From an uncultured Candidatus Saccharibacteria bacterium (GTDB taxonomy: Bacteria > Patescibacteriota > Minisyncoccia > Phycocordibacterales > UBA9973), in NCBI GenBank assembly GCA_964596395.1, contig CAZQSY010000006.1, positions 153 to 64,152 on the forward strand: 64,000 nucleotides of DNA, written 5' to 3'. Made by a program: the position numbers and the translations under genes. This document shows positions 1-59,183 of this stretch, piece after piece; the first letter of the stretch is position 1; each line of letters begins with the position of its first letter. The notes under the pieces were generated by a model. That model ran no database searches and was not told where the DNA came from. It saw nothing but the letters and a program-made list of their open reading frames with translations.

Positions 1-80
1 GGTTCTACGGTAAGCTCGGTGACAGGGAATAAGTCGTAACAAGGCACGGGTAGCGGAAGCTGCTCGTGGATTAATTCAAT
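1..80 (+). rRNA. rrs: 16S rRNA, 3'-terminal fragment (gene starts upstream of the window)
   Basis: Contains the universal 16S 3' motif AAGTCGTAACAAGG followed by a helix-45-like GGTAGCGGAAGCTGCTCGTGGAT; the expected CACCTCCTT tail is replaced by TAATTCAATTG. Confidence 0.8.
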
Positions 81-280
81 TGAAAAACTCGGTTCGATTT
101 CGGTCGAACCTTAGTGAGTCGGTATTGTGTACTAGAATTCTGTACACAATGGTTTGGGTAAGACCTACAATACTCTGGCATCTTGGGAAGACAAGAAACC
201 TGCCCGCAATGCTATAGCATAGCTTTTGCAGGCGGGTAAAAAAGTTTAGAAGAACGAAACAAAACAAAGGACAGCACATA

Positions 281-326
281 AGCAAAAGTCGCCACGTTTT
301 ACGTGGCGACTTTTGCGTTTTTTGGT
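281..326 (+). terminator. Rho-independent terminator downstream of the 16S rRNA
   Basis: Hairpin AAAAGTCGCCACGT-TTT-ACGTGGCGACTTTT followed by a T-run. Confidence 0.7.
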
Positions 327-383
327 TGACTTTTTTGAGGGGGGGGTAGAATTAGGTTATTAAAAATTTAACCTAACATATAC

Positions 384-515
384 ATGAGTGATGAAGAATT
401 AAAACAACTTGCCGAAAAGGTCGCGGGAGGCAAAGCCTCTGAAGAAGAAAAATTGGCTTTTATGAAAAGGTTCAATGAGCTTCTTGAGGAATTAAAAAGG
501 GAATTAAGAAAATAA
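384..515 (+). CDS. small hypothetical protein (43 aa, acidic/Lys-rich helical)
   Basis: ATG..TAA ORF not in the track (<60 aa), ending 4 nt before the next gene. Confidence 0.3.
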   Translation: MSDEELKQLAEKVAGGKASEEEKLAFMKRFNELLEELKRELRK

Positions 516-519
516 TTTT

Positions 520-978
520 ATGATAGCAAAAGAAGAAATGCCGTTAAGCTGGTCATCTTTAGATCAACAATTAGCAAAAGAGGGAAAGAATTTAGCCACA
601 AATGCTCATGAGGTTTTGGAACTTTTGGGAAAAAATAAAGAAAAACCAAATGTTTTTTCACTTGAACTAAGATCACTTTTGGCAAAAATTGGGGCGACAT
701 GCTGTAAGTATGTTCAATTTGCTGGAATGGCAGCTGGTGTGGGGGTAACTGTTCCACCGTTCATATATGCGTTTTGGGAAAAGTTTGCCTTAAATAACAA
801 TAATCCGCCGTTTTCAGAAAGAGAAGTGATTATTGGGACCCTCGTTGCGTTTCTTGGGGTAGTAGCAACTCTCGGGGGAGATTTGGGAAGACGTGCACTT
901 GAAGAAAAGTCAACCGAGTTAAAGATTAAGTTAGAACAGATGGCACAACTGGCTTCAAAAACAGAAGGGGTAAAATAA
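520..978 (+). CDS. hypothetical membrane protein
   Basis: 152-aa ORF with hydrophobic segments; followed by a terminator. Confidence 0.5.
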   Translation: MIAKEEMPLSWSSLDQQLAKEGKNLATNAHEVLELLGKNKEKPNVFSLELRSLLAKIGATCCKYVQFAGMAAGVGVTVPPFIYAFWEKFALNNNNPPFSEREVIIGTLVAFLGVVATLGGDLGRRALEEKSTELKIKLEQMAQLASKTEGVK

Positions 979-992
979 TTTTAAAAAACAAA

Positions 993-1028
993 AAACCACC
1001 TAGCATGTTGGTGGTTTTTGTGTTTTTG
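993..1028 (+). terminator. Rho-independent terminator
   Basis: AACCACC-tagcatgtt-GGTGGTT hairpin plus a T-run. Confidence 0.65.
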
Positions 1029-1043
1029 GATTATAATTCACGC

Positions 1044-2006
1044 ATGTCAGACGCCTCGGTAAAAATACGGGTTGGGGTCCTCCGCGGCATGGCGGGGGAG
1101 CATTATGGCGACTCGCTTCAAAAAGGCGCGGATTTGATTTCTTTGATTGCCGAAAATTTGGCGGAGAAATTTAAGACCAGCGATATTTTTATAGACAAAG
1201 ATTATATCTGGCACTTGAACGGCCTGCCGCTCACGCCGGGCGATTTGGCGCACAAGGTTGACGTAATCTGGAACACCTCGCATCCGAGTTTAAACAACAT
1301 TATCGAGAGTTTGTATATTCCGCATGTCGGAGTTCCCGCTTTTTCTTCTGGTCTAGAAAAAAGCCGGGAAATGCTTCGGGAGCACATGAAAAAAATAGGG
1401 GTTAAAATGACTCGGCACGTTTTGATTCCGCCGTATCAAGAAGATTTCGATGCCCGCCCGCATACGCCTGAGCGTAGCGATGGCGGGCGGGGCCCCAAAG
1501 AAAAATATTCAATCAAAAAATCAAAAGAAATTTTTGAAAAATTCGGCGCGCCGTGGCTGGTGAAATCCGTCGCGCCCGACCCGAATATGGCCGTGCATTT
1601 GGCGAAAACTTTCCCAGAACTGGTCGAGGCGATAGAAGACGGAGTAAATCATGAGAGAGGTTTATTGGTAGAAGAATTCATATCCGACAGAAAAGTTTCG
1701 GTTCACTCGGTACCGACGTTTAGAGGCCAAGACATATATCTCTTTTCTCCCGATAACATGAGAGAAGACGAGAAAAAAAGCGCTCACGATATCATGCGGG
1801 GTTTGCACGAGCACACCGGCGCTAGGTATTATTTAAAGTCCGATTTTGTTTTTCACCCGCGAAGGGGGGTGTTTCTCTCGGGCTTGTCTTTTTCGCCGGA
1901 ATTTAAAAAAGATTCCCATCTTGAAAAATCTTGCGAGTCCGTTGGCGCCAAGATGCACCATGTGGTAGAACATATACTAGAGAGTGCGTTGAATTTAAGC
2001 AAATAA
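1044..2006 (+). CDS. ddl: D-alanine--D-alanine ligase-like ATP-grasp enzyme (divergent)
   Basis: N-terminal KIRVGVLRGMAGEHYGDSLQKG resembles the Ddl N-domain [20 protein letters not shown]; central WLVKSV and LLVEEFIS segments parallel the Ddl ATP-grasp core; start moved to ATG 1044 after the terminator. Confidence 0.5.
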   Translation: MSDASVKIRVGVLRGMAGEHYGDSLQKGADLISLIAENLAEKFKTSDIFIDKDYIWHLNGLPLTPGDLAHKVDVIWNTSHPSLNNIIESLYIPHVGVPAFSSGLEKSREMLREHMKKIGVKMTRHVLIPPYQEDFDARPHTPERSDGGRGPKEKYSIKKSKEIFEKFGAPWLVKSVAPDPNMAVHLAKTFPELVEAIEDGVNHERGLLVEEFISDRKVSVHSVPTFRGQDIYLFSPDNMREDEKKSAHDIMRGLHEHTGARYYLKSDFVFHPRRGVFLSGLSFSPEFKKDSHLEKSCESVGAKMHHVVEHILESALNLSK

Positions 2007-2012
2007 GTTTTC

Positions 2013-2092
2013 GGGGTAGAGTATAGTGGCAGTACGCGAGCATGGGGTGTTTGTAGCGGCGGTTCGATTCCGCCTACCCCGACGAGTTAAAG
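2013..2092 (+). tRNA. tRNA-Pro (anticodon GGG)
   Basis: Cloverleaf with C1:G72 acceptor CGGGGTA/TACCCCG, anticodon loop ATGGGGT, T-loop TTCGATT. Confidence 0.7.
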
Positions 2093-2132
2093 GTCTGGAA
2101 AAAATTCTATTTTGTGCTAATTTAATACTACT

Positions 2133-2203
2133 GGGCCTGTAGTATAGTAGTAACACGCGTCCATGGCATGGACGAGTCGGGGGTGCGATTCCCCCCAGGT
2201 CCA
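2133..2203 (+). tRNA. tRNA-Ala (anticodon GGC)
   Basis: Acceptor GGGCCTG/CAGGTCC with G3:U70, anticodon loop ATGGCAT. Confidence 0.8.
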
Positions 2204-2239
2204 CAAGCGCCTGAAATTTGCGCGACCACAAGATATATC

Positions 2240-2313
2240 GCATCCTTAGCTCAGTTGGTTAGAGCGTGCGATTCACATTCGCAAGGTCGGAAGTTCGAGT
2301 CTTCCAGGATGCA
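2240..2313 (+). tRNA. tRNA-Val (anticodon CAC)
   Basis: GCATCCTTAGCTCAGTTGGTTAGAGC 5' half, anticodon loop TTCACAT, T-arm GGAAGTTCGAGTCTTCC. Confidence 0.85.
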
Positions 2314-2329
2314 CACAATTTAATAGTGC

Positions 2330-2400
2330 GGGCCTATAGTAAAGTGGTATTACGCTACATTCGCATTGTAGAGGCGCGAGTTCGATTCTCGCTAGGTCCA
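2330..2400 (+). tRNA. tRNA-Ala (anticodon CGC)
   Basis: Acceptor GGGCCTA/TAGGTCC with G3:U70, anticodon loop TTCGCAT, T-loop TTCGATT. Confidence 0.8.
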
Positions 2401-2501
2401 CAGCCGTTTGTAAAATCTCCCCTGCGTTATATTTTTAGATTAACGCTTCCTTGCCCGAAGTGCTATTATTAGTGGAATATTATTAGTAATATAAAACTTC
2501 T

Positions 2502-3248
2502 ATGCCAACTTTTTATCTCATTGTTGCGGTCGTTGCGATTATTTTGTTCAGCATTAAGCAGATAAATCAATATGAGCGGGGTGTGAAATTCACCCTGGGG
2601 CGGTTCAGTAAAATAATGGAGCCGGGCTGGCGGCTCGTGGTTCCCGTTTTCCAATCCTATCAAAAGGTAGATATGCGGGTAAAAGCGGTAGATGTGCCCG
2701 ACCAGAACGCCATCACCCGCGACAACGTATCTGTCGCCGTAAACGCGGTGATTTACTACAAGGTTGCCTCGGCCGAGAAAGCCATCATTGAAGTTGAGGA
2801 TTTCTTTTACGCAGTGTCTCAATACGCGCAGACGACCATGCGAAACATTGTCGGCGAAGTTACTTTAGATGAGCTCTTGGCCGGGCGGGAGAAAATTGCG
2901 GAGAGAATCAGGGAAATCGTGGACAAAGAAACCGACGAATGGGGACTCAAGGTAAACAACGTGGAGTTGAAAGATATCAAACTGCCCGAGAATATGGAAA
3001 GGACAATCGCCAAGCAAGCCGAAGCCGAGCGTGAAAAGCGGGCCGTGATTATCACTTCTGAAGGAGAGCTGGCGGCCGCGAATAACATGGCGCAGGCGGC
3101 GAAAATTTTGTCTGCTTCCGACGGGGCGCTCCATCTGCGGACCCTGCAGGCGATTAACGACATTTCATCTGATCAATCCAATACCGTTGTCTTTACTCTT
3201 CCTCTAGAAATAGTAAAGGCCTTCATCGGTTACAAAAAAGAGAAGTAA
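2502..3248 (+). CDS. SPFH/band-7 (stomatin/prohibitin-like) membrane protein
   Basis: N-terminal TM helix then the SPFH core (QYERGVKFTLGRF, VDVPDQNAITRDNVSVAVNAVIYYKV, AEREKRAVIITSEGE). Confidence 0.85.
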   Translation: MPTFYLIVAVVAIILFSIKQINQYERGVKFTLGRFSKIMEPGWRLVVPVFQSYQKVDMRVKAVDVPDQNAITRDNVSVAVNAVIYYKVASAEKAIIEVEDFFYAVSQYAQTTMRNIVGEVTLDELLAGREKIAERIREIVDKETDEWGLKVNNVELKDIKLPENMERTIAKQAEAEREKRAVIITSEGELAAANNMAQAAKILSASDGALHLRTLQAINDISSDQSNTVVFTLPLEIVKAFIGYKKEK

Positions 3249-3312
3249 AATGGGGGACGTGATGTAGATATTCTTATAGTATTTAATTGATTCCTGTTTA
3301 TCCACAACTGTT

Positions 3313-3341
3313 TTGTTTTTTGGCTTGCGGTTTTGTATAAT
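3313..3341 (+). promoter_or_regulatory. sigma-70-like promoter (TTGTTT-17-TATAAT with upstream TG)
   Basis: Perfect TATAAT at 3336-3341 preceded by TG; drives a ~110-nt leader for the ATP-grasp gene. Confidence 0.4.
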
Positions 3342-3422
3342 TAGAGAGGTCGCTTAACAAGGATAAAAGAAGAAAATTTCATGTCCCTTGGAGGCCACTA
3401 AAAATACGGGGTTTATCCCTTC

Positions 3423-3450
3423 TTAAGAGACAGCGCGAGCTGTCTCTTAG
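3423..3450 (+). promoter_or_regulatory. 12-bp perfect hairpin 10 nt upstream of a start codon
   Basis: CTTAAGAGACAGC-gcga-GCTGTCTCTTAG. Confidence 0.5.
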
Positions 3451-3460
3451 TGATTTAGGC

Positions 3461-4669
3461 ATGTCTATAACACCGGAAAGCGAAGAAAAAAAAGTTCTAA
3501 ATAAAAAAGTATGCCCTTACTGCGGGGACGCGCCGATGAGTCACGCCTTTTCGTATACGGACGGAGTTTTATCGTACCTTTTTGATTTTCTTCTCGGCTG
3601 GACCCCGCGCATAACCCCTAGGTTTGTCTTGCGTTTGATAGAAAAATTTTTGCGTTTGTGTCTTGACGCCCTTATTATCGTCGGGGCTGTGAAATTTTCA
3701 AAAGACCCCGAGAAAGCGGCTACCTTGCGCTCAAGGGTTATTTGGGATGAAGCCAAAAAGAGAGGTAAAGATATGGAGCAACTTATAATTTTCGGGAAAT
3801 ATACTGATAATTATCGGGCGCGGATAAATGGAAAGTTTTTTTATTTCAACAGCTTGCCTTTAGATGTAGACCCCGCGGGTAATTCAGACAGATGGGATGA
3901 TAAATTTTTCTTGAAAAAGCGCCTGCGTGAAATTTCGGCGCCGGTTCCCCGGTGCGAGAACGTGCCTTTTTTGAAAGCGAATAGACGGCGTCTCTTTGAG
4001 AAGCTTACGAAACCTCTGGTGGTGAAGCCAAGGTCGGGTTCTAGAGGCAGGCACACGACCACAAACATAAATACCTTTGAAGAATTCGAAAAGGCGGTCA
4101 AAGTGGCGAGAAAGTTATCTCCGCATACTGTGGCTGAAGAATATCTCTCGGGTTACGTGTGCCGAGCGACCTGCGTAGACGGTAGGCTCGCGGGATTTTA
4201 CCGCGCAAACGAGCCGTATGTGACGGGAGACGGCGAAAAAACTTTGCGTGAACTGATTCAGAGCAAGAACGATAAAAGGCCCGAACGGGTGAAAGAAATT
4301 TTGGTATCGGACGAGATTCTGCAATTCGTGGGGCGGCTGGGCCTAACGCTCGACGGCATCCCTCAGAAGGGGAGAAGAATTTCTCTCACGCATCGGACGG
4401 GCAGATATTTCGGGGGCGGTACCAGAGAGATGCTCGACGAACTGCATAAAGATTTTATTCCCATACTTGAATCGGCCGCCCGGCTGACTGGTCTGCCGGT
4501 TGTCGGGCTTGATTGCATAGTACCCGACCCGGAACATGCGCCGAGTGCGCAGAGATGGGGAATCATTGAGTGCAACACTCTGCCTTTTATTGATTTGCAT
4601 TATTTTGCGCTTGAAGGAAAGCCCCGAAATATAGCGGGTATGGTGTGGGACATGGTGGAAAAGAAATAA
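3461..4669 (+). CDS. ATP-grasp domain protein (cyanophycin-synthetase-N-terminal-like / RimK-like)
   Basis: PLVVKPRSGSRGRHTT resembles the ATP-grasp motif PVVVKPLDGNQGRGV; Cys-cluster (CPYCGD) at the N-terminus. Confidence 0.55.
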   Translation: MSITPESEEKKVLNKKVCPYCGDAPMSHAFSYTDGVLSYLFDFLLGWTPRITPRFVLRLIEKFLRLCLDALIIVGAVKFSKDPEKAATLRSRVIWDEAKKRGKDMEQLIIFGKYTDNYRARINGKFFYFNSLPLDVDPAGNSDRWDDKFFLKKRLREISAPVPRCENVPFLKANRRRLFEKLTKPLVVKPRSGSRGRHTTTNINTFEEFEKAVKVARKLSPHTVAEEYLSGYVCRATCVDGRLAGFYRANEPYVTGDGEKTLRELIQSKNDKRPERVKEILVSDEILQFVGRLGLTLDGIPQKGRRISLTHRTGRYFGGGTREMLDELHKDFIPILESAARLTGLPVVGLDCIVPDPEHAPSAQRWGIIECNTLPFIDLHYFALEGKPRNIAGMVWDMVEKK

Positions 4670-4728
4670 ACCGGTCGCTTTCTTTTTTTGCCGTTTTGGG
4701 GTATATTTTCCTTGTTCATTTTCAATAT

Positions 4729-4799
4729 CGGGCTGTAGTATACCGGTAGTACGTGCGCTTCGGGTGCGTAAAGACTGGGTTCGATTCCCAGCAGCCCGA
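4729..4799 (+). tRNA. tRNA-Pro (anticodon CGG)
   Basis: C1:G72 acceptor CGGGCTG/CAGCCCG, anticodon loop TTCGGGT, T-loop TTCGATT. Confidence 0.85.
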
Positions 4800-4830
4800 C
4801 AGGATATCTTGTCTGTGTTATAATACTCGT

Positions 4831-4956
4831 CAGATTGTTTCTATCTGCGGCGGGTGGTCGCACTCACATAGGCACATATGTTGGAGTTTCGCCATCACCC
4901 GCTTCAAATGGGAAGAATCAAGCCCCGTCGCTCTAAAGCGACGGGGTTTTGTTTTT
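4831..4956 (+). ncRNA. candidate small RNA or tRNA trailer ending in a strong intrinsic terminator
   Basis: Extended -10 TGtTATAAT at 4816-4824; stem 4850-4856/4896-4902; terminator hairpin CCCCGTCGC-tctaaa-GCGACGGGG plus T-run at 4921-4956; no ORF. Confidence 0.3.
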
Positions 4957-4987
4957 AAAATCTTCCAGCAAAAATAAATTTCTATAA

Positions 4988-5060
4988 CGCACGGATATTT
5001 TTCTGCTGAAAAATTCCTCGTGCTCGCGTCGCCGCGCTCGCAAGGCGTTCTAGAAATTAT
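4988..5060 (-). repeat. degenerate copy (A) of a ~125-nt structured intergenic element family
   Basis: CACGGATATTTTTCTGCTGAAAAATTCCTCGTGCTCGCGTCGCCGCGCTCGCAAGGCG aligns with the copies at 30274-30396 and (reverse orientation) 57356-57480. Confidence 0.5.
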
Positions 5061-5252
5061 TTTCGCTTGCAGATTAAAGTTATCCACAGTTTTGTCTTGA
5101 AAAGTATTGTGCTTGCGTTTGATATGCGGGATAATTATTAGTAGAGCAATAATTATCAAAAATATTTTTCAATAAATTTTTTTAGAAAGAAAATATTTTC
5201 GGGTCGTATTATTGCAAACTAAAAATTAGAAGTTTAATTGCAAAAAACTAAA

Positions 5253-5312
5253 ATGGCAGCTAAAAAGAAGAAAGCTAAGAAGGCAGCAAAAAAGGGAAAG
5301 AAGCGAGCATAG
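5253..5312 (+). CDS. 19-codon poly-lysine micro-ORF (MAAKKKKAKKAAKKGKKRA)
   Basis: ATG..TAG followed immediately by a strong terminator; coding status uncertain. Confidence 0.2.
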   Translation: MAAKKKKAKKAAKKGKKRA

Positions 5313-5330
5313 TTTCTTTTTCCCACTTCT

Positions 5331-5370
5331 AAAAAATCCTCCCCCCCAAAAAAGGAGGATTTTTTAGTTT
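5331..5370 (+). terminator. Rho-independent terminator
   Basis: ATCCTCC-cccccaaaaaa-GGAGGAT hairpin then TTTTT. Confidence 0.65.
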
Positions 5371-5376
5371 TGTTTC

Positions 5377-5462
5377 GGCGAGGCCGGCAAGGTTTGCTCG
5401 GGTCCTCGGGTCGGCCTTTCAGGCCTCAACCAGACCAGCTCGCAGACCTTGCCGGCCTCGCC
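5377..5462 (+). promoter_or_regulatory. long GC-rich stem-loop (17-bp perfect stem) in the secA leader
   Basis: GGCGAGGCCGGCAAGGT ... ACCTTGCCGGCCTCGCC enclosing 52 nt; ends 8-30 nt before the secA start. Confidence 0.55.
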
Positions 5463-5491
5463 TTGATTGAATGTATGCTAATATAAATAGT

Positions 5492-7987
5492 ATGGCTTTT
5501 TTAAGCAGCATATTTGGTGATACCAGTGCGCATTTTGCCAATAAAGCTCGGGGAATTATAGCTAAAATAAACGACCTAGAAGGGGATTTTTCGGCTTTGC
5601 CGGATGAGGATTTTCCGAAAAAAACCGCCGAATTCAGGGAAATGCTAAAGAACGGGAAGACCGAAAACGACATCTTACCCGAGGCCTTCGCTCTGGTGCG
5701 GGAAGCCGCCAAGAGGACTTTAGGCGAGAGGCATTATGATGTACAGCTTATCGGCGGGATGGTGCTAGACCAGGGGAAAATTTCTGAAATGAAAACCGGC
5801 GAAGGCAAGACCTTGGTGGCGACCTTGCCGGCTTACTTGAACGCGCTTTCGGGCGAGGGTGTGCATATTGTCACCGTAAACGACTATCTGGCGAGGAGAG
5901 ACGCGGTTTTGATGGGACAGGTTTACAATTTTCTGGGCCTTTCCGTGGGCGTGATAAATTCGCAAAATGTTTCTTATCTGTACGATGCGAAACATACCGA
6001 AGAAGACAAAGAGCGAGACCAAGTGGGGGAATATAAAATTGTCTATGATTTTCTGAAACCGTGCACCCGCAAAGAAGCGTACGCCGCTGACATAACTTAC
6101 GGCACGAATCATGAGTACGGCTTTGATTATTTGCGCGACAATTTGGCAACCCGGGTTGAGGACCTGACGCAGAGGGGGCACAATTTCGCGATTGTGGACG
6201 AGGTGGACTCGATTTTGATAGACGAGGCGCGCACACCGCTTATAATTTCTTCGGCCTCGGCGGATTCGGGGGATTTTTACGTGAAATTTTCGCAAATTGC
6301 CAGACAGCTAAAGAGGGATACGGATTACGAGGTAGACGAGAAGCTTCGCGCAATCACACTGACGGATGCCGGCATCAGCAAGGCAGAGAATCTTTTGGGC
6401 ATAGAAAATATTTATACCGAAAAGGGCATAAAATATGTGCATCATCTGGAAACGGCGGTCAAAGCGCAGGCGCTTTTCGAGCGAGACAGGGATTATGTGG
6501 TGAAAGAAGGCGAGGTAATCATCGTGGACCCTTTTACCGGGCGGCTGCAGCCCGGCCGGCGCTGGAGCGAAGGCATACACCAAGCAATCGAGGCCAAGGA
6601 AGGAGTGAAAATTGAGAGAGAGACGAGATCTTCGGGTTCGATTACTTTCCAAAATTATTTCCGTTTTTATAAAAAACTTTCGGGTATGACCGGTACAGCG
6701 GCGACTTCGGCTGAGGAGTTTTTAAAAGTTTACGGCCTGGATGTGATTGTGGTACCGACGAACCGGCCGATGATACGTCGCGACCACGGGGACCTGATTT
6801 TTCAGACCGAGAAAGGCAAGTTTCAGGCCATTGCCAAAAAAGTGAAAGAACTCAATCAGAAAGGTCAGCCGGTATTAATCGGCACTATTTCGATTGAGAA
6901 AAACGAACTGCTCTCTGTATATCTAAAGCAGGAAGGCGTGCAGCATGTGATACTGAATGCCAAGAATCACGAGAAGGAAGGCGAGATTATCGCGCAAGCC
7001 GGCAAACGCGGGGCGGTGACGATTGCCACGAACATGGCCGGACGCGGAATCGACATAAAACTTGGCGGCAACCCTATCGTAAAAGAAGAATACGAATTCG
7101 TGAAAAGTGTGGGCGGGCTTTTCGTCCTCGGTACCGAACGGCACGAAGCCCGCCGCATTGACAATCAGCTGCGGGGACGTTCGGGCCGGCAGGGCGACCC
7201 GGGCGAGACACAGTTTTATGTTTCGCTTGAGGATGATTTGATGCGCGTTTTCGGTTCGGAGCGGATTAAGAATATGATGGGCAGGTTCGGAATTCCCGAA
7301 GATGTGCCGATAGACAACCGTTTCGTATCAAAGACGCTTGAGAGTGCGCAGGCGAAAATAGAGGGGTTTCATTTTGACGCGCGCAAGCACACGCTCGAGT
7401 ATGACGACGTGATGAATCATCAGCGCAATGTCGTGTATGACCGGCGCCGCAAGATGCTTTTCTCGGAAAAAGGGGAAATCGAGAATCTTTTGAATAAAAC
7501 TCTGGAGGGCCTAGAGGCTGAAGCAAAAGAAAGATTTGAGAAAATTATCAAGGAAAAAAGAGAAAAACTCGGCGAAGAAGCATTTTTTGAGACCGTTCGC
7601 CGGATCGCGCTTTATACCAATGACTCTCTTTGGATGGAGCATCTGGAAGAGATGGATTATCTACGAAGTTCGGTGAATTTGCGCGCTTACGGCCAGCGCG
7701 AACCGATTGTGGAATACAAGAAAGAAGGCCTATCGATGTTTAAGGCGATGGAAGAGGCGTTTAAAGAACAGGTCTTGTCGCTTATTGAAACGATTAATGT
7801 TGAACAGAAACCAAACTTGCAGGCCGAGGAAAAAGCGCCCAAGCAGACCTTAATCACGAGCCATAGCGAGCCCTCGGAATTAGGAGGGAAAAAGGAAAAT
7901 TTGCCGAAGCATGAAGCCAAAGTCGGCCGTAACGACCCGTGCCCGTGCGGAAGCGGTAAAAAATACAAGAAATGCCATGGTGCGTAA
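5492..7987 (+). CDS. secA: preprotein translocase ATPase SecA
   Basis: DEAD-motor motifs ([56 protein letters not shown]) and C-terminal zinc motif [14 protein letters not shown]; start at MAFLSS by alignment to SecA N-termini (track ORF begins at 5471). Confidence 0.95.
7956..7980 (+). repeat. 25-nt exact repeat, copy 1 (encodes the SecA zinc-finger tail)
   Basis: GTAAAAAATACAAGAAATGCCATGG is also present at 9821-9845. Confidence 0.9.
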
Positions 7988-7990
7988 GAG

Positions 7991-8380
7991 ATGAAAGAGC
8001 TCGAAAAGAAAATTTACAATCATCTGAAAGACAGGAACTGGCATAATTTGCGCCCGGTGGATTTGGCGAAATCAATTATGATAGAAGGTGCTGAACTATT
8101 GGAACTTTTTCAATGGGAAAATTTGCCGCTCCATGAAGTGAAAAAAAATAAAGAAAAGGTAGAGGAAATTAAGAACGAGCTTGCCGACGTGCTGATTTAT
8201 GCCATGGAAATGTCAGTTTTGCTCGGCCTTGATACTGAAAAAATCATAAAGAAAAAGCTAGCCCGCGTGGAGAAGAAATATCCGGCCAAATTAATAAAAT
8301 CGGCGAAACAAGAACCCGACAGTGATTTGAGTTTGTATTGGAAGATTAAAAAGGAACACAGGAAGAATAGGATAGCATAG
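7991..8380 (+). CDS. MazG-like nucleoside triphosphate pyrophosphohydrolase
   Basis: All-alpha MazG/dCTPase-type motif EGAELLELFQW...ELADVLIYAMEMSVLLGLD. Confidence 0.6.
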   Translation: MKELEKKIYNHLKDRNWHNLRPVDLAKSIMIEGAELLELFQWENLPLHEVKKNKEKVEEIKNELADVLIYAMEMSVLLGLDTEKIIKKKLARVEKKYPAKLIKSAKQEPDSDLSLYWKIKKEHRKNRIA

Positions 8381-8387
8381 AAGTATT

Positions 8388-8828
8388 ATGGCTTTTAAAC
8401 CAGACACAATTCGGGTAAAAGCAATGTGCCTAATTATTGATGGGGAGAAAGTACTTTTGGGCGAGGGCTACGATAAAGTAAGAAAAAAACATTTCTATAG
8501 GGTTTTGGGCGGGGGTATGGAATTTGGGGAAACTGCCGAGCAGGCGGTGCGAAGGGAAATTAAGGAAGAATTAAATTCTGAAATTGAAAACTTAAAATTT
8601 CTGAAAGCCCTAGAGAATATATTTACCTATGAAGGCATGAACGGGCACGAAATAACTTTCATGTTTAAGGGAGAATTGAAAGACAAAAGCCTGCTCAGAG
8701 AAGATTCTATCTTTATTGACGAAGGCGATTATTCTTTTGACGCTAAATGGGTTCCGGTTTCCGATATTCTGGAGAAGAAAATAACTTTGTATCCAAGCTG
8801 TGATTATAAAAAATTACTGAACCTATAA
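8388..8828 (+). CDS. NUDIX hydrolase
   Basis: Nudix box GGGMEFGETAEQAVRREIKEELN. Confidence 0.8.
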   Translation: MAFKPDTIRVKAMCLIIDGEKVLLGEGYDKVRKKHFYRVLGGGMEFGETAEQAVRREIKEELNSEIENLKFLKALENIFTYEGMNGHEITFMFKGELKDKSLLREDSIFIDEGDYSFDAKWVPVSDILEKKITLYPSCDYKKLLNL

Positions 8829-8834
8829 AGCAAA

Positions 8835-9296
8835 ATGCCAAGCAAAAGAGTTTTCACGCTTTGTACTATAATTGACGGCTCGAAGATTTTGCTTGGCAGG
8901 AAGAAAAAAGGTTTGGGTAAAGGGAAATGGAACGGCTTTGGCGGGAAGGTGGAGAAGGGGGAAACAATTAGAGAAACAGCAGTAAGGGAAGTGAAAGAAG
9001 AATGCGGGCTTTTGGTAAAGAACTTGAAGAAGGCAGGAGTTTTGGATTTTAAATTTGAGAATATCCGCGAAATTTTTCAGGTGCATTTTTTTTGGACAAG
9101 TGATTTCTCGGGCAAGCTCAAAGAAAGCCAAGAAATGAAGCCGAAATGGTTTGATATAGAAGATGTTCCCTACGAGAAAATGTGGCCAACTGACAAACAT
9201 TGGCTGCCGGTTTTGCTCAAGGGCGGTAAATTCAGGGGTCGGTTTCTCTTCGACAAAAATGAGGTTATACTAAAAGATGAATTAATAGAAACTTAA
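8835..9296 (+). CDS. NUDIX hydrolase (MutT/MTH1-like)
   Basis: Nudix box GFGGKVEKGETIRETAVREVKEECGL; WNGFGGK resembles MTH1-type enzymes. Confidence 0.8.
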   Translation: MPSKRVFTLCTIIDGSKILLGRKKKGLGKGKWNGFGGKVEKGETIRETAVREVKEECGLLVKNLKKAGVLDFKFENIREIFQVHFFWTSDFSGKLKESQEMKPKWFDIEDVPYEKMWPTDKHWLPVLLKGGKFRGRFLFDKNEVILKDELIET

Positions 9297-9301
9297 AAAA
9301 T

Positions 9302-9736
9302 ATGCAAAACGAAAAGGAAAAAATGCAGATGTTGGTTGTTTTGGCTTTGATTCGCGACAGAAAAGGAAAAATATTTCTGCAGAAGCGGCATGATTCTTTA
9401 ATACCAAGCGCTCACAACAAATGGGAATTCCCTGGTGGAAAAGTCAATTACGGAGAACGTCCCGATAAAGCTGTTGTACGGGAATGTTACGAAGAAACTG
9501 GTTTTAAGATAAAAGCATTGAGATTGTTACCTTACATTGCATCGAATGTTTGGAACAGGAACGATGGTAAAGAACACCATGCCCTAGTGTTGTGCTATGA
9601 AGCTAGGTTAGTAAAAAAGATTCCGAGACACTTGCACAGAAAAGTTTCTGAGGCTAAATGGTTTCCTGAAAAGGAGATTAAAAAATTAAATACACTTGCG
9701 GGTACAAGCGAGTTTATTAAGCTGTTTAAATATTAA
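9302..9736 (+). CDS. NUDIX hydrolase
   Basis: Nudix box EFPGGKVNYGERPDKAVVRECYEETGF. Confidence 0.8.
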   Translation: MQNEKEKMQMLVVLALIRDRKGKIFLQKRHDSLIPSAHNKWEFPGGKVNYGERPDKAVVRECYEETGFKIKALRLLPYIASNVWNRNDGKEHHALVLCYEARLVKKIPRHLHRKVSEAKWFPEKEIKKLNTLAGTSEFIKLFKY

Positions 9737-9805
9737 ACCCCGGTTTGTGCTACAATATTCAACATATGATAACGGCCGGCTTCCGAAAGGCAAGGCCTTT
9801 CGGAA

Positions 9806-10189
9806 ATGCGGAAGGAAACAGTAAAAAATACAAGAAATGCCATGGAGAGTAATAAGACAAAAATAGAAGAAAGAGGAGGAATTATTAGAAAAATCCGTGC
9901 CGGATGGAGTTTACTTAATTTGGAAGGTCGGGGAGAGGTTATTAAAGTGTACTACACCCCGGAAGATGAAGTGTTTGAAGATGATGGCCTTTCGCGCCAA
10001 GTAAGAGAGGAAATGGCGCAGTTGCCTGATTCTGTGAGGGATACGATTGAAAATGAAGGTAAGAAAATTTTATCTGAAGTTACTCAAAAAAGTTTTAAAA
10101 AAATCATTAAAGAAGCATCCATTGACGACCTGGAAAGATTTTCTAGAATCATTTCCAAAGTACTTTTAGAAGAAAGGTTTCAAAATTAA
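9806..10189 (+). CDS. hypothetical protein (N-terminus carries a copy of the secA 3' 25-mer)
   Basis: 127-aa ORF; the true start may be ATG 9851 (MESNK...). Confidence 0.4.
   Translation: MRKETVKNTRNAMESNKTKIEERGGIIRKIRAGWSLLNLEGRGEVIKVYYTPEDEVFEDDGLSRQVREEMAQLPDSVRDTIENEGKKILSEVTQKSFKKIIKEASIDDLERFSRIISKVLLEERFQN
9821..9845 (+). repeat. 25-nt exact repeat, copy 2
   Basis: Identical to 7956-7980. Confidence 0.9.
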
Positions 10190-10276
10190 GATATATTTTA
10201 TCGGGAAGCAAAATAGGAGGACACGATTAAGTTTTTTTTATTTACTTTAAAAGTATAGGTAAAGGGTAACAATAGT

Positions 10277-12983: not shown

Positions 12984-12988
12984 GGGGT

Positions 12989-14221: not shown

Positions 14222-14325
14222 CCCCTGATACTAAACGTTTTCCACATGTTTTGCAATATGGCCCAAAAACCTTTATTTTACAAGGATTTTTGACCTTGAC
14301 ACAATGGAAATTTGTTGTTTAACTA

Positions 14326-14354
14326 TTGACTTTTTCTCGCAAGTATGCTATCAT
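14326..14354 (+). promoter_or_regulatory. sigma-70-like promoter TTGACT-17-TATCAT
   Basis: Canonical spacing; gives a ~140-nt leader for the gene at 14503. Confidence 0.45.
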
Positions 14355-14447
14355 ATCAATATAACCTTTATTAGAGGACTTAGGTCTTTTAATAGAGGTT
14401 TTTAGTTTCCTGCGGTAACTAATCCCAGAAAAATAGATGAGTTGGCA

Positions 14448-14485
14448 CCCGCCCGCCTCGCACACGCGAAGCGTTGCGGGCGGGG
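14448..14485 (+). promoter_or_regulatory. GC-rich stem-loop 17 nt upstream of a start codon
   Basis: CCCGCCCGC-(20 nt)-GCGGGCGGG. Confidence 0.5.
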
Positions 14486-14502
14486 AGCAATAACCGCTCA
14501 AT

Positions 14503-15165: not shown

Positions 15166-15170
15166 AAATA

Positions 15171-15304
15171 AAAAAGGCCAGAAAAAAGTTTTTAAGGGGT
15201 TTGGCGAGCCCTGCCTGCCGGCAGGCAGGGACGGCGAGCCAATTTCAGGAATTTTTAAGCTTCAAAAATTCCGTACCGACAAAAACTTTGTTTCTGGCCT
15301 TTTT
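15171..15304. repeat. 134-bp element of nested palindromes with ~24-bp terminal inverted repeats (MITE-like / bidirectional terminator) between convergent genes
   Basis: AAAAAGGCCAGAAAAAAGTTTTT ... AAAAACTTTGTTTCTGGCCTTTTT; inner perfect palindromes CTGCCTGCCGGCAGGCAG and GGAATTTTTaagcttcAAAAATTCC; flanking GGCGAGCC direct repeat. Confidence 0.5.
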
Positions 15305-17515: not shown

Positions 17516-17518
17516 TTT

Positions 17519-28537: not shown

Positions 28538-29347
28538 TTACGCGTGTTTCAGCGGCTTTGACTGATAATCTTCTTCGCCGTACACGTAGCGGAAGAGGAA
28601 GATTATGCCGAAGATTATAACAATCGCCATGAGCCACTGCATAAGACCGGAAGGCAGGAAGCTGTCGTAGCCGAGCATCGCGTTCGCGGTCACACCTTCG
28701 TATTCTTCGTTAATGTCGTCTTTGGTTTCTATCCGGTTGGACGTTTTCTTGACGGCAGTATTTGTATTTGCCGTAGTTGTGACAGCGGCGGTTTTGTTTA
28801 CGCTGTAGCTCGTGCCCGAGGTTTTGTAATTGTAATTCGTATCCGTGCTGTAATTACTGTAGCCGTAGCTCGTTTTGCTCTTGGTGTCTTTGACTGTATC
28901 TGCGTTTGCTTTGATAGAGAAGGAAGCCGCGTTCGAGTATTCTCCCTCGTCGCGGTTGTAGACCGAGACGTAGAATTCTGCCTGGTTGTCGGCGATTTCG
29001 CCCGGGCGGATATCAAACTGCATATGTCTCGGGTCTATGAACCTGCTCGAGTGGTTTATGCCGTCGATTTTTACCACCGAGCTCTCGTTGAAATTGTCGC
29101 CGGTAATCGTGATTCTCACCCTTTCCGTAAGTTCATCTGCGCCTTTCGGGTTGATGTAGGCGATGTAAGGTGTATCTTCTTCACCTTCGCGCACGTACCT
29201 GCGTAAATAAGCCCCGTTGTCGTCGGTTGCGAAATAATATTTATCGGCGGCCTGAGCCCTGGTAGCCATGAAGGTAATCAATCCGAAGCCCAAAATAACC
29301 AATATTTCAAAGCCCCAAATTATGAATTTTTTATTTACCTTAAACAT
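28538..29347 (-). CDS. cell-surface protein with IPT/TIG-like domain, Ser/Thr/Asn/Tyr-rich region and C-terminal TM anchor
   Basis: Signal peptide; VRITITGDNFNESSVVKIDGINHSS IPT-like strand pattern; low-complexity STNY region; C-terminal TM helix. Confidence 0.5.
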   Translation of the reverse strand: MFKVNKKFIIWGFEILVILGFGLITFMATRAQAADKYYFATDDNGAYLRRYVREGEEDTPYIAYINPKGADELTERVRITITGDNFNESSVVKIDGINHSSRFIDPRHMQFDIRPGEIADNQAEFYVSVYNRDEGEYSNAASFSIKANADTVKDTKSKTSYGYSNYSTDTNYNYKTSGTSYSVNKTAAVTTTANTNTAVKKTSNRIETKDDINEEYEGVTANAMLGYDSFLPSGLMQWLMAIVIIFGIIFLFRYVYGEEDYQSKPLKHA

Positions 29348-29384
29348 ATTTAAATTATAGCATACTAGGGCTTAAAAGTCAAGG

Positions 29385-29466
29385 TGCCCGAGGTGGGGGT
29401 CGAACCCACATCCCTTGCGAGACACGATTTTAAGTCGTGCGCGTATACCAATTCCGCCACTCGGGC
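29385..29466 (-). tRNA. tRNA-Leu (anticodon TAA)
   Basis: Reverse complement GCCCGAGTGGCGGAATTGGTA...; anticodon loop CTTAAAA; long variable arm; T-arm GGGTTCGACCCCC. Confidence 0.85.
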
Positions 29467-34219: not shown

Positions 34220-34256
34220 AATTTTGTTAAACTTTTGAAAGTGTTATAATACCGCT

Positions 34257-34997
34257 ATGGATATCAAGGATTTAAACAAACCTCAGCTTATTCTGCTTGC
34301 CCTGCTTATTTCTTTTGTCACTTCGCTGGCCACCGGCATTACCACGGTGACTTTGATGCAGCAGGCGCCCGATACTGTAACTACGCCGATTACCAACGTG
34401 GTAAGACAAACGGTAGAGAAGATAGTGCAGGTGCCGGGAAAAACCGCCGTGCAGACAGTGGTCATAAAAGAAGAAGACCTGGTGGTGGACGCGATAGAAA
34501 AAAATAAATCAGCTCTCTTTTCTTTGACGAAAGAATGGAAGGATAATGATGGGAATGCAATGCAGGCCTCCGCGGGGTACGGATTCGCAGTTTCTGAGGA
34601 CGGGATACTGGTCGCCGACAGTTTTCTGATTTCTCCGGAAGAAAATTACTACGCGGAAAATGAAAGCGGAAAGTTCAAAGCGACTCCGATTGCTTCGCAG
34701 GGAAAAAAGGACTTTGTTTTTTTGAAAATCGGAGAGCCCTTGGACCCCGCGAGTAAAATTTCTTTTTCCGTACCCGAGGCGGGCGATATCGGCCAAATGA
34801 AAGCCGGCCAGAAAATTTTGATTTTGGGGGAATCAGTGTCCTCGCTCTTTCTTTCTGGAAGCAAAGAGCTGAAAATACCCGGCGCAAGCGGGGGCTCTCT
34901 GGTACTGAATCTTGAAGGGCAGGCGCTCGGCATGGTTTCTTCGGCCGGCGAAGTAAAGTTTGTTCCGATAGATAAAATTCTTGAATCCCTAATTTAA
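34257..34997 (+). CDS. membrane-anchored trypsin-like serine protease (HtrA/DegP catalytic domain only, no PDZ)
   Basis: TM anchor; GASGGSLVLNLEGQALGMVS resembles the catalytic-serine segment GNSGGPLVN..G.VIGI. Confidence 0.6.
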   Translation: MDIKDLNKPQLILLALLISFVTSLATGITTVTLMQQAPDTVTTPITNVVRQTVEKIVQVPGKTAVQTVVIKEEDLVVDAIEKNKSALFSLTKEWKDNDGNAMQASAGYGFAVSEDGILVADSFLISPEENYYAENESGKFKATPIASQGKKDFVFLKIGEPLDPASKISFSVPEAGDIGQMKAGQKILILGESVSSLFLSGSKELKIPGASGGSLVLNLEGQALGMVSSAGEVKFVPIDKILESLI

Positions 34998-50621: not shown

Positions 50622-50654
50622 CCCTCCGAAGCATGCTTATGATATAATTAGCGT

Positions 50655-51860
50655 ATGGGGATTTTTTCCAAGCGTGAAAAAGAAGAAAACCTTTTTCTCC
50701 TTTTTGATGTCGGTTCTGCTTCGGTTGGCGGGGCCTTGTTCAAGGCCGGTGGTTCCCGGGTTCCGGAAGTTATTTTCTGCGCGCGCGAAAGCATCGACTT
50801 TGAAGAAAAGATAGAGCCGGAGAAGTTTTTTTCTTCTACTTTGCGCGCGTTGAACGCGGTTACCGGCAAAATTCATCTCTCGGGTCTAGGCAGGCCGGAG
50901 AAAATTTTTTGCGTGCTTTCGTCTCCCTGGTACGTATCGCAGACCAGATTTATCAAGCTTGAAAAAAACACGCCTTTCGTTTTCACCGAGAAGGTCGCCG
51001 ACGAGCTGATTCAGAAAGAAATAGAAATTTTGGAAAAAGAAAACACGGAAAAGTTTGGAAAAGAGTCGAAAAAAATCCGGCCGATAGAATTCAAGAGCAT
51101 GAAGACCTTCTTGAACGGCTATCCGATTGCGAATCCTTACGGCAAGAAAGCCAGGATTCTGGAAATGCCCGCTTTCATTTCTGCCGGAGCGGAAAAGATT
51201 TTGAAGAAGATGGAGCAAACAATAAGGAAACATTTCCATACGGAAAATGTGAAGTTCATGTCTTTCGCCATGGCGCAGTTCGCGGTGGCGCGGGACGTCT
51301 GGCGCGATAAAGAAAATTTTCTTCTGGTGGATATTGCCGGCGAAGTAACCGATGTCTCGATAGTCAAAAAAGAAGTGCTACACAATTCTGTCTCTTATCC
51401 GCTCGGGCGCAATTTTATCATCCGAAAAATCGCGCAGGAATTCGGTTTTACCTTAAACGAAGCCGAGTCGGTCATATCGCTTTATATCCAAGGACACGCC
51501 GATAAATCCCTGCTCAGGAAGATTCTGCCTTTTATGAAAGAGGCCGAAAGCGATTGGCTCAGGGGCTTTCAGCAGTCCTTGATAAAAATATCCAACGATA
51601 TTTCAATCCCGGCCGATGTTTTTATGTCGGCGGACAGGCAATTTGAAAAATTTTTCGGAGATATCATAGAGACGGAACAATTTAGCCAGTACACCCTGAC
51701 CGAGTCGAAATTTCGGGTTGTTCCGATGAATACCGAAATACTGCACGGCTTGGCGTCTTTCAAAGAAGGAGTGAAGCGCGACCCTTTCATAATCGCGGGT
51801 ATTTTTTATGCAAGCCGTTTTTTGCTGGCGCCCGCCTTGGGTAGCGGAACGAGGATTTAA
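50655..51860 (+). CDS. actin-like ATPase-fold protein (FtsA/PilM-like)
   Basis: LLFDVGSASVGGALF (phosphate-1-like) and LLVDIAGEVTDVSIV...LGRNFIIRKIAQEFG (phosphate-2/adenosine-like) arranged as in FtsA/PilM. Confidence 0.4.
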   Translation: MGIFSKREKEENLFLLFDVGSASVGGALFKAGGSRVPEVIFCARESIDFEEKIEPEKFFSSTLRALNAVTGKIHLSGLGRPEKIFCVLSSPWYVSQTRFIKLEKNTPFVFTEKVADELIQKEIEILEKENTEKFGKESKKIRPIEFKSMKTFLNGYPIANPYGKKARILEMPAFISAGAEKILKKMEQTIRKHFHTENVKFMSFAMAQFAVARDVWRDKENFLLVDIAGEVTDVSIVKKEVLHNSVSYPLGRNFIIRKIAQEFGFTLNEAESVISLYIQGHADKSLLRKILPFMKEAESDWLRGFQQSLIKISNDISIPADVFMSADRQFEKFFGDIIETEQFSQYTLTESKFRVVPMNTEILHGLASFKEGVKRDPFIIAGIFYASRFLLAPALGSGTRI

Positions 51861-53214: not shown

Positions 53215-53448
53215 ATGAACGGGCAAAAAATTGAAAAGGACTTGACGGCGAGGGGAGTGGTTACCGAATCGCTTCCTTCAACCTTGTTTCGGGTAAAAAT
53301 AAAAGAGAAGGACGGCGAAGAAAAAGAAATCTTGGCGTATCTCTCGGGTAAAATGCGCATGCATCGAATCAAGGTATTAATCGGCGACTCGGTTGAAGTC
53401 GTACTAGACGAGTACGGGGGGAAAGGAAGGATTGTGAAAAGGTTGTAA
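53215..53448 (+). CDS. infA: translation initiation factor IF-1
   Basis: S1-like fold sequence GVVTESLPSTLFRVKI...AYLSGKMRMHRIKVLIGDSVEV..GKGRIV. Confidence 0.85.
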   Translation: MNGQKIEKDLTARGVVTESLPSTLFRVKIKEKDGEEKEILAYLSGKMRMHRIKVLIGDSVEVVLDEYGGKGRIVKRL

Positions 53449-57487: not shown

Positions 57488-57514
57488 CCTCCTTGAAGAA
57501 AGGAGGTTTTTTGT
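57488..57514 (+). terminator. Rho-independent terminator
   Basis: CCTCCTTgaagaaAGGAGG plus TTTTTTG. Confidence 0.7.
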
Positions 57515-57528
57515 GTTAGTATAAAAAC

Positions 57529-58125
57529 ATGTCAGATGAAAAAGAAGAATCAAAAAAAGAAGAAAAGACCCCCGAGGAATCGGAGGTTCTTGAGTTTGAA
57601 TTTAACGAAGACGGGGAGGAAGATTTAAAAAAGACAATCAAGAAACTCCGCGCCGAACTAAAAACCGCCAAGGCAGAACGAGACGAATACCTTACCGGCT
57701 GGCAGAAAGAGCGGGCCGATTTTGCCAATTACAAAAGAGAGGAGGAGAACCGCAAGGCAAGTTTTTCCGAATCGGTTCGGGAGCGCATTTTGACGAAATT
57801 TTTGGCGGTGCTGGATAGTTTCAGCATGGCTTTCGCCAACAAAGACGCTTGGGAGAAAGTTGACGAGGGCTGGCGCAAGGGGGTTGAATATATCCATTCA
57901 CAGTTTCAGAATGTTTTTGAAGAATACGGAGTAAAAGAAATCGGGGAAATTGGAGAAAGTTTCGACGCCAACATTCACCATTCGGTAGGCGGTACCCCGA
58001 CCGAAGAAAAAGAGAAAGACCACAAGGTCGCCCTGGTCGTCCAAAAAGGATACAAGCTGGGCGAACGCGTGCTGCGCCCGGCCAAGGTGAACGTCTACGA
58101 ATATGTCGAAAACGGAGGAGAATAG
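57529..58125 (+). CDS. grpE: nucleotide exchange factor GrpE
   Basis: Coiled-coil N-terminus, GWQKERADFANYKRE (GrpE signature-like), C-terminal beta-domain. Confidence 0.85.
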   Translation: MSDEKEESKKEEKTPEESEVLEFEFNEDGEEDLKKTIKKLRAELKTAKAERDEYLTGWQKERADFANYKREEENRKASFSESVRERILTKFLAVLDSFSMAFANKDAWEKVDEGWRKGVEYIHSQFQNVFEEYGVKEIGEIGESFDANIHHSVGGTPTEEKEKDHKVALVVQKGYKLGERVLRPAKVNVYEYVENGGE

Positions 58126-58572: not shown

Positions 58573-59091
58573 CTATCCGTTTGCGCTTTTCAAAAAAGCG
58601 TGCCTGGTCTTTTCATCTATTTTATTTGAGACGATTATCATGAGTTCAGAGAGAAGCCCCATGTCTTTTTTAATATTTTCAAAAAGAAATTCGTACGGAT
58701 ATGGGGAAATCCAGACGGTATTTTTTACGCACCGGAAGCCGGCTTTTTTCAGTAGGTAGCGTAGCGCCTCGCGTTCGTTTTTTCTTTCTTCAGGCATGTC
58801 TAAAATAACGATTCGCCAAAAACCGTCCCAGGCGGGGGATACCAGAGCGCCTTCGCCTTCGAGTTTTATGCGGTCCAACTTTTCTTTGCCGGCCTTGGTA
58901 AGACGCAGGTAGCTTTTGTTGTCTGATTTTATTATTTCCACGCACCCTGCGGTGGCCAGGTTTTTTATCGAACGGTTTATGGCATATCTGGTTTTTTTGT
59001 CTGTCTTTTCCGCGATGGATTCTATCGAGACAACCCTTTTTTCAGCCAATTTTTTCAATATTTTACCGGAATATTCTTTTCTGCTTGACAT
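58573..59091 (-). CDS. PaaX-family-like transcriptional regulator (wHTH plus C-terminal PaaX-type domain), divergent from dnaK
   Basis: C-terminal WDGFWRIVILDMPEERKNEREALRYLLKKAGFRCVKNTVWISP fits the PaaX pattern W.G.W..V.YDIPE..R..R..LR..L...GF..LQ.SVW..P. Confidence 0.5.
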   Translation of the reverse strand: MSSRKEYSGKILKKLAEKRVVSIESIAEKTDKKTRYAINRSIKNLATAGCVEIIKSDNKSYLRLTKAGKEKLDRIKLEGEGALVSPAWDGFWRIVILDMPEERKNEREALRYLLKKAGFRCVKNTVWISPYPYEFLFENIKKDMGLLSELMIIVSNKIDEKTRHAFLKSANG

Positions 59092-59183
59092 GTGGATATA
59101 CTATCATATATACTCTTATTATACAAATATTTCGTGGTCGCAAAATTATTGTTATCAACATATTATAAAATAAAAATCAAAAT

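Follow-up and report, generated by a model that had tools for sequence, protein, structure and literature searches.

The 16S rRNA of this bacterium has lost its anti-Shine-Dalgarno (anti-SD) sequence, its genes lack Shine-Dalgarno (SD) motifs, and the SD/anti-SD system has been lost rather than given a new pairing code. SD/anti-SD pairing is the textbook start mechanism of bacteria and CCUCC is nearly invariant across them; a large free-standing lineage without CCUCC is a natural experiment in start-codon finding. The DNA that we analysed, hereafter the window, is a stretch of 64 kb that begins inside the 16S rRNA gene, close to its 3' end. Taken as a whole, the evidence is probably best explained if, with the anti-SD lost, translation began on leaderless messages, by coupling between neighbouring genes or on unstructured leaders, and if the remaining rRNA tail were kept by a hairpin formed with the trailer. 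Two leads follow from this. A promoter-at-start (leaderless) signature together with tight gene coupling is the likely replacement for SD pairing, and the tail appears still to be constrained through pairing with the trailer, which ties it to experiments on the anti-SD in rRNA maturation. The leaderless signature and the covarying hairpin make the question of how translation starts in these bacteria directly testable.

Window positions 1-81 correspond to E. coli 16S rRNA from about 1453 to 1542, and the 5' part of the gene lies outside the window (Table 1; the E value of the Rfam match refers to a search on 400 nt). Helix 45 is intact, and it is identical or compensated in 100 relatives. The tail that follows, GAUUAAUUCAAUU, is 13 nt long and differs from the consensus GAUcACCUCCUUu at five positions with no indels. 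Four of the five C's and one U have changed, each now being U or A (C1533, C1535, C1536, C1539 and U1540 in E. coli numbering), and G1530, A1531, U1532, A1534, U1537, C1538 and U1541 are kept. The anti-SD core CCUCC (E. coli 1535-1539) has become AUUCA at window 74-78. An earlier note on this DNA had quoted the 16S end, a string that we located at window 58-82, and had read it as a tail without the CCUCC anti-SD; the gap-free RF00177 alignment, with helix 45 intact, bears out that reading. The 64 kb contain no copy of GATCACCTCC, and there is no CCTCC in the window before position 1079, where the copy lies inside a coding sequence.

Table 1. Features of the window, with coordinates in window positions; leaderless starts are predictions from the sequence.
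Feature	Position	Strand	Evidence or remark
16S rRNA gene, 3' end	1..81	+	Rfam RF00177, 50.7 bits, E 9e-14, model 1453-1533
Helix 45, intact, GGAA loop: CACGGGUAGC-GGAA-GCUGCUCGUG	45..68	+	cmscan alignment, all 10 pairs standard
16S 3' tail GAUUAAUUCAAUU, replacing GAUCACCUCCUUU	69..81	+	Gap-free alignment to Rfam consensus
Putative tail-trailer mini-hairpin UUC-AAUU-GAA	75..84	+	Covariation in relatives
Trailer hairpin GGUUCGAUUUCGGUCGAACC	91..110	+	Inverted repeat read in the sequence
Conserved trailer element: GUCGGU, then hairpin AUUGUGUAC-UAGAAUUCU-GUACACAAU	118..150	+	Hairpin in MFE fold
3' strand of 16S leader-trailer (RNase III-type) processing stem, GAACGAAACAAAACAAAGGACAGC	252..275	+	
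Intrinsic terminator of the 16S unit	282..325	+	16-bp stem plus T run
Predicted leaderless start, Ddl-like gene: TATAAT (1032-1037), 6 nt, ATG (1044)	1032..1046	+	
Predicted leaderless start: TGtTATAAT extended -10, 6 nt, ATG (34257)	34242..34259	+	
Predicted leaderless start: TGaTATAAT extended -10, 6 nt, ATG (50655)	50640..50657	+	
Predicted leaderless start, grpE: TGtTAGTAT, 6 nt, ATG (57529)	57514..57531	+	
Predicted leaderless start: TTGACT, 17 nt, TATAAT, 6 nt, ATG (start base 29347)	29345..29388	-	
Predicted leaderless start: TGaTAGTAT, 6 nt, ATG (start base 59091)	59089..59106	-	
bS1-like protein, four S1 domains, 369 aa	15305..16414	-	NCBIfam S1 models, E 1e-62, below equivalog cut-offs
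IF2, short form, 507 aa	30407..31930	-	Pfam GTP_EFTU, IF-2, EF-G_D2
IF1	53215..53448	+	Pfam PF01176, E 2.7e-15
alaS	48774-50621	+	
mnmA	ORF 46934-48280, probable start 47093	+	

The whole 3' region of the 16S precursor lies within the window. The stem-loop at 91-110 occupies the same place in relatives with a variable sequence. Further downstream, GUCG[AG] occurs 20-110 nt past the tail in 100 of 119 relatives as against 15% in shuffles, and the trailer element at 118-150 may be a processing or factor-binding site. Many relatives have the motif GUCG[AG]U about 50 nt after the 16S tail and a hairpin resembling GUGCCUCAAUUGAGCAC. A direct search for a complementary 14-mer was used to find the leader-trailer stem. 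L002 and L003, two relatives whose 16S genes are complete, have the equivalent of 252-275 some 195 nt beyond the tail and its complement, GCUGUUUUUUGUUUUGUUUCGUUC, just upstream of the 16S 5' end, which identifies 252-275 as the 3' strand of the processing stem. The stem is roughly 24 bp long, and the corresponding stretches of L002 are 8070-8097 and 9953-9985. Since no 23S, 5S or spacer tRNA gene follows, the 16S gene is a stand-alone unit, with its own leader-trailer stem and terminator, and the 64-kb window holds no other rRNA gene. The tRNA clusters of the window (Pro-Ala-Val-Ala at 2012-2401; Pro at 4729-4800; Leu, Cys, Lys and Leu at 29383-29938) are not linked to it.

The earlier note had left itself an escape, namely that the true tail might lie elsewhere, beyond an insertion. 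CPR 16S genes do often bear insertions, such as the group I intron of L001 (384-591) and the LAGLIDADG-type ORF of L004 (226-963), and the window holds just 81 nt of the gene, so that one could imagine the observed tail to come from an insertion or intron, from a pseudogene copy or from a chimeric assembly while a functional canonical tail lies elsewhere. We find this hardly credible, and it is already largely refuted: the alignment to the model is free of indels, no CCUCC occurs from the tail through the leader-trailer stem to the terminator, and the same degenerate junction and tail type recur in more than 100 independent assemblies, including full-length 16S genes that score 1330 bits. The 16S gene of L001 has a further insertion between model position ~1380 and its 3' end at 1854.

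By its sequence, the host is a Parcubacteria/Paceibacteria CPR bacterium of Nomurabacteria-like type. The Ddl-like protein encoded beside the 16S gene (1044-2006) has 622 homologues, and those with names come from Candidatus Nomurabacteria, Paceibacterota and 'Patescibacteria group' MAGs, at 54-60% identity. The contigs of two Ddl-like homologues, from independent assemblies, share the gene order 16S, ddl-like, secA, and in them the tail reads GGAAUAAUUCAAUUU. We assembled the loci of relatives from a metagenome scan with the helix 45 sequence (120 loci), to which other loci were added. CCUCC was absent from 122 of the 123 readable tails of relatives that share this helix 45, the exception being locus L095, and two more of these tails were near-canonical (CCUUC and CUUCC). 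Tails were diverse, with 56 different 12-mers among the relatives, and AAUAAUUCAAUU and AUUAAUUCAAUU were the commonest forms in the Nomurabacteria-like group. A separate pattern search of genome contigs returned three loci, of which one ended in a canonical tail and two in degenerate tails of other sequence; a single contig among the relatives' loci ends 5 nt after helix 45. Loss of the anti-SD is a clade-wide trait, common to essentially all relatives with this helix 45, and the comparison with related genomes proposed in the earlier note has come out in its favour. One contig, L005, with the end of its 16S gene on the minus strand, has been binned as a MAG of Fodinibius sp. (Balneolales). 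It matches the Nomurabacteria-like relatives exactly in helix 45, ends in a degenerate tail (GGAUAUAUUUAAUUU) and is probably a CPR contig that was binned wrongly. The core finding, anti-SD loss in about half of Parcubacteria, is already known: Tsurumaki, Saito, Tomita & Kanai (2022, RNA 28:1041; PMC9297842) detected the CCUCCU motif in just 48% of Parcubacteria, the members without it overlapping with the group that lacks uL1, and concluded that the SD helix is presumably not formed in them. The rplK-rplA region, which bears on uL1, lies outside the window.

We called 61 genes in the window as long non-overlapping ORFs with the first ATG as start, a crude longest-ORF rule under which several starts (mnmA, a cysteine desulfurase-like gene, secA and groES) are visibly too long. 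Two over-extended ORFs illustrate this: in 31882-33684 (+), which overlaps the IF2 start region, a class-V aminotransferase domain begins at residue 201, and in 46934-48280 (+) the MnmA domain begins at residue 60. The genes that the earlier note had named (secA, gyrA, clpB, groES, groEL, dnaK, rpoA, rpsD, alaS and mnmA) could all be verified; at 615 aa, the alanyl-tRNA synthetase is a short one without the usual C-terminal region. Its assertion that genes lack SD motifs also stood up, as GGAGG was found upstream of none of the 61 genes and an SD core (GGAG, GAGG or AGGA at -20..-4) was as frequent before the starts (11%) as before 1544 control ATGs (11%). The anti-SD pairing-energy check that it had proposed, run here on the 61 window genes, gave a mean duplex energy to the canonical anti-SD of -2.4 kcal/mol at starts versus -3.8/-3.9 at controls; pairing is thus depleted rather than enriched. 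SD enrichment was seen in no gene class of the window, first or internal. Upstream of starts, G makes up 7-13% of bases at -13..-1, and the -15..-5 region is of the SD-less, A-rich type known from Bacteroidia (A 44% vs 27%, G 14% vs 24%). The enrichment of A and depletion of G run all along -15..-1 at all starts, internal genes included. As a positive control, 50 kb of E. coli K-12 were treated with the same crude calling: SD cores stood before 39% of starts vs 5% of controls, with duplex energies of -5.2 vs -3.9, and the method is therefore able to see SD. Among relatives, the few real genes that lie beside canonical or near-canonical tails, a tiny sample of a handful of genes, have AGGAG- or GAGG-like motifs. 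Gene callers built on SD models will misplace starts in the genomes of this lineage, and in the present one start calling free of such models is needed.

A changed tail could in principle have acquired a new partner. A new anti-SD (for instance UUCAAUU) might pair with a new upstream motif, as the ASD2/ASD3 of Flavobacteriales do, and the fair conservation of the tail in the Nomurabacteria-like group, with its two commonest forms, would fit such a re-specification. We regard it as very improbable, however, since window starts give no tail-complementary signal: the duplex energy of the -20..-1 region with the real tail was much the same at starts (-1.72) and at control ATGs (-1.75), and thirty shuffled tails, averaging -2.14, paired at least as well as the real one. 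GAATT, AATTG, TTGAA and similar words were not enriched upstream of window starts, and the 56 different 12-mers among relatives are matched by no upstream motif. The tail-complement test covers the genes of the window, which do not include rpsU, the gene for bS21. With no upstream motif complementary to the new tail, it is the system that has been lost, not the pairing code that has changed. The central proposal of the earlier note, SD-independent initiation coupled to a modified rRNA tail, is accordingly supported by the tail itself, the SD scan, the clade-wide spread of the trait and the published survey (PMC9297842), with the addition that the tail has not been re-specified.

What may have taken the place of SD pairing is suggested by the position of promoters. 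The earlier note had remarked that sigma-70-type -35/-10 boxes are easy to find, which is true, but they are not above chance: a two-hexamer promoter scan of 1-20000 gave 29 hits versus 24.3 +/- 5.3 in shuffles. The real promoter signal is positional. We took as a box any TAnnnT with at least 4/6 matches to TATAAT and plotted a histogram of its distance to the start codon. Such a box stood exactly 6 nt before 10 of 61 curated window starts (expected 0.36), as against none at 5 nt and one at 7 nt; with automatic gene calls it stood there in 9/61. The relatives (62 loci) showed the same spacing in 46 of 387 genes (expected 5.8), and again the spike was confined to one position, with 12 boxes at 5 nt and 23 at 7 nt. 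None of 41 E. coli starts had a box at this spacing. The extended-10 element TGn, whose TG lies two bases upstream of the box, accompanied 33 of the 55 pooled spacing-6 boxes (60%), against a background of 6.7% for boxes of this kind anywhere in that DNA (p = 5e-25), and the start codon was ATG in 53 of these 55 cases. In the window, the box preceded 9 of 37 genes that come first in a transcription unit and 1 of 24 internal genes. Homology-corrected starts have similar boxes nearby, at spacing 7 for secA (5492) and spacing 9 for mnmA (47093). Transcription normally begins about 7 nt after the -10 hexamer, and a box 6 nt before the start would therefore place +1 on the A of AUG and yield leaderless mRNAs. 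The presence in many genes of a -10 box some 6-7 nt upstream of the start is what is expected of a leaderless genome, and we predict that the spacing-6 box is a signature of leaderless mRNAs. In the literature searched we found no paper that links leaderless mRNAs with CPR/Patescibacteria, nor this signature itself, which is an addition of the present analysis.

Could the TAnnnT at -12..-7 instead be a translational element, a 'Kozak' or A-rich signal read by bS1 and the 30S subunit on mRNAs with normal leaders, with SD-less initiation of the 30S type? The enrichment of A and depletion of G at all starts, internal ones too, would suit such an element, as would the bS1-like protein encoded in the window, and Bacteroidia translate SD-less mRNAs in such a way (PMC13000453). 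As an account of the box it is nevertheless unlikely. The spike in relatives occupies a single position, the box has the -10 consensus T-A-t-a-a-T, TGn lies upstream in 60% of cases, and first genes have it far more often than internal ones. TGn is a sigma-factor contact, and we know of no translational role for it. A translational element of this kind probably describes the other genes, those without a spacing-6 box.

Under the leaderless reading, roughly between a quarter and a third of the genes that come first in a transcription unit would give rise to leaderless mRNAs: a -10 or extended -10 box ending 6 nt before the start would set the first transcribed base on the A of AUG or beside it, and the 5'-terminal AUG would recruit the ribosome together with IF2 and fMet-tRNA. 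The spacing-6 box is carried by about 15% of all genes, and the majority of genes need a different route. Operon-internal genes (24 of the 61) closely follow the gene before them: the median distance from its stop codon is 6 nt, and the gaps, which range from -4 to 23 nt, are at most 9 nt in 19 of the 24. Such gaps are the pattern expected for termination-reinitiation or coupling, which suggests that internal genes are probably translated in this manner. The remaining genes would have short, A/U-rich, G-poor leaders on which the start is chosen through lack of structure, possibly aided by the bS1-like protein, a candidate recruiter of such SD-less leaders. The gene of this protein (15305-16414) is not mnmA.

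Several proteins of the window were noted alongside. IF2 begins directly with the G domain, its N-terminal region being absent. uS11 sits on the ribosomal platform beside the 16S 3' tail; the uS11 of the window (54066-54521, +) has some 40 residues before the Pfam domain and no alternative start in its first 50 codons. A single protein encoded at 42843-43871 (+) combines Sigma70 region 4 and HARE-HTH domains, and a 401-aa protein (22470-23675, +) has a T4SS-pilin-like C-terminal domain.

The degenerate tail appears to keep a covarying mini-hairpin with the first bases of the trailer, a feature that we did not find in the literature searched and that is added here. In the window its 5' arm corresponds to E. 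coli 1536-1538 and its 3' arm to the first three bases past the canonical 3' end; in relatives, tail positions 6-9 (E. coli 1536-1539) are matched with the nucleotides that directly follow that end. Variants include UUCA-AUU-UGAA, UUCC-AAUU-GGAA, GUC-AAUU-GAC, CUC-AAA-GAG and UUUCA-AGG-UGAAA, and L095, the single relative with a canonical tail, has CUCC-UUUCUAU-GGAG at -4.9 kcal/mol. A1531 and U1537 are invariant among the relatives' tails, A1534 is conserved in 92% and C1538 in 76%. We examined covariation with an anchored test on tails with U7 C8, in which the first downstream GA was taken as the partner of UC and the flanks were scored, so that the alignment was not fitted to the structure. 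Position 9 and its partner formed 50 A:U and 20 C:G pairs, 8 were unpaired and none was A:G or C:U (Fisher 6e-18); paired cells numbered 70, whereas permuted data averaged 41.6 and never exceeded 55, all of these being plain sequence counts that ignore kinship among relatives. A:U and C:G pairs at position 9 are each found with every one of the three helix 45 backgrounds, and tails of one 5' class include both. Position 6 showed C:G three times and G:C once, which does not beat permutation (p = 0.15). A MAFFT alignment left the hairpin arms out of register and a covariance model was built; in the resulting alignment of 100 sequences, which leans toward the model, the hairpin pairs in 94% with double changes at all four pairs, as against 27-47% pairing when the whole 14-pair structure is slid along the alignment. 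Conservation stops 3-4 nt past the 3' arm, information content dropping from 0.8 to 0.07 bits.

It might be objected that the tail decays neutrally and that A/T richness, palindromic AATT cores and common descent suffice to create the look of a hairpin. The hairpin is indeed weak (+0.5 to -2 kcal/mol, and a marginal +0.5 in the window), RNAalifold did not predict it, position 6 does not depart from permutation, and a generic longest-stem test was modest (4.45 vs 4.14 in shuffles), A/T-rich tails allowing alternative registers. We nevertheless hold neutral decay to be unlikely, because position 9 pairs beyond the permutation maximum with no A:G or C:U, and does so with both pair types on every helix 45 background and within 5'-tail classes. 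Moreover, C6:G, G6:C and CUC/GAG variants occur, the loops AGG, AAGA, AAC and UUUCUAU are non-palindromic, which speaks against a DNA palindrome, and information content falls directly past the 3' arm.

The covarying mini-hairpin is probably a pre-rRNA processing element, part of pre-16S, that aids 3'-end processing. We propose this role because of the CUCC/GGAG hairpin of L095, the SD-like motifs of genes beside canonical tails and the F. johnsoniae data, in which ablation of the anti-SD impairs 16S maturation independently of SD reading (PMC13000453). Era, whose binding site is GAUCACCUCC, has been lost in most CPR (PMC10582724). With both SD pairing and Era binding gone, the tail would have decayed toward A/U, and what would still constrain it is a hairpin of 3-4 bp formed with the start of the trailer, changes in the trailer compensating for those in the tail. 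A bolder version, which we consider quite unlikely, is that the hairpin is retained in mature 16S rRNA, giving an end 7-8 nt longer and a cis helix, formerly CUCC/GGAG, that permanently fills the site of the SD/anti-SD duplex. If true, this would be an RNA-built form of the anti-SD sequestration that proteins perform in Bacteroidia. The high conservation of helix 26, the contact of the SD helix, in Parcubacteria, noted as unexplained (PMC9297842), could then also be accounted for. Such a structure would suit a ribosome specialised for leaderless and reinitiating messages.

How does this genome compare with known systems? Leaderless messages abound in Actinobacteria, Deinococcus-Thermus and many archaea, and in comparative studies leaderless transcription is deduced from a -10/TATA signal that precedes the start codon by about 10 nt. 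The window resembles these prokaryotes in that a good share of its genes have a -10 box at one short, constant spacing from the start codon, and in the strong preference for AUG. However, the leaderless-rich bacteria among them (Actinobacteria, Deinococcus) keep the anti-SD, and SD motifs on internal genes, and the window has neither. Mammalian mitochondrial mRNAs are leaderless or nearly so. Mitochondria share with our bacterium a small-subunit rRNA without anti-SD (PMC10582724), but they are organelles with dedicated factors and their loss is evolutionarily independent. Bacteroidia such as F. johnsoniae, with their SD-blind ribosomes, are alike in having SD-less genes with A-rich upstream regions, in translating SD-less mRNAs and in a second role of the anti-SD region, in rRNA maturation (PMC13000453). 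They differ in that CCUCC is kept, sequestered by bS21, bS18 and bS6 and used for rpsU autoregulation; here the sequence is gone, the 16S end in the window retaining no CCUCC. The window holds no bS21 gene. The alternative anti-SDs of Flavobacteriales (UCUCA / UCUCU), as they are cited in PMC13000453, are likewise naturally altered 16S tails, but there a compensating rpsU SD keeps the pairing, whereas no complementary motif was found here. The closest match is with the anti-SD-less Parcubacteria (PMC9297842), to which our bacterium belongs both by lineage and by the missing CCUCCU at its 16S 3' end. That paper offers neither an initiation mechanism nor an account of what the tail became, and the present analysis adds to it the absence of SD as measured on genes, a predicted leaderless signature and a putative covarying tail-trailer hairpin.
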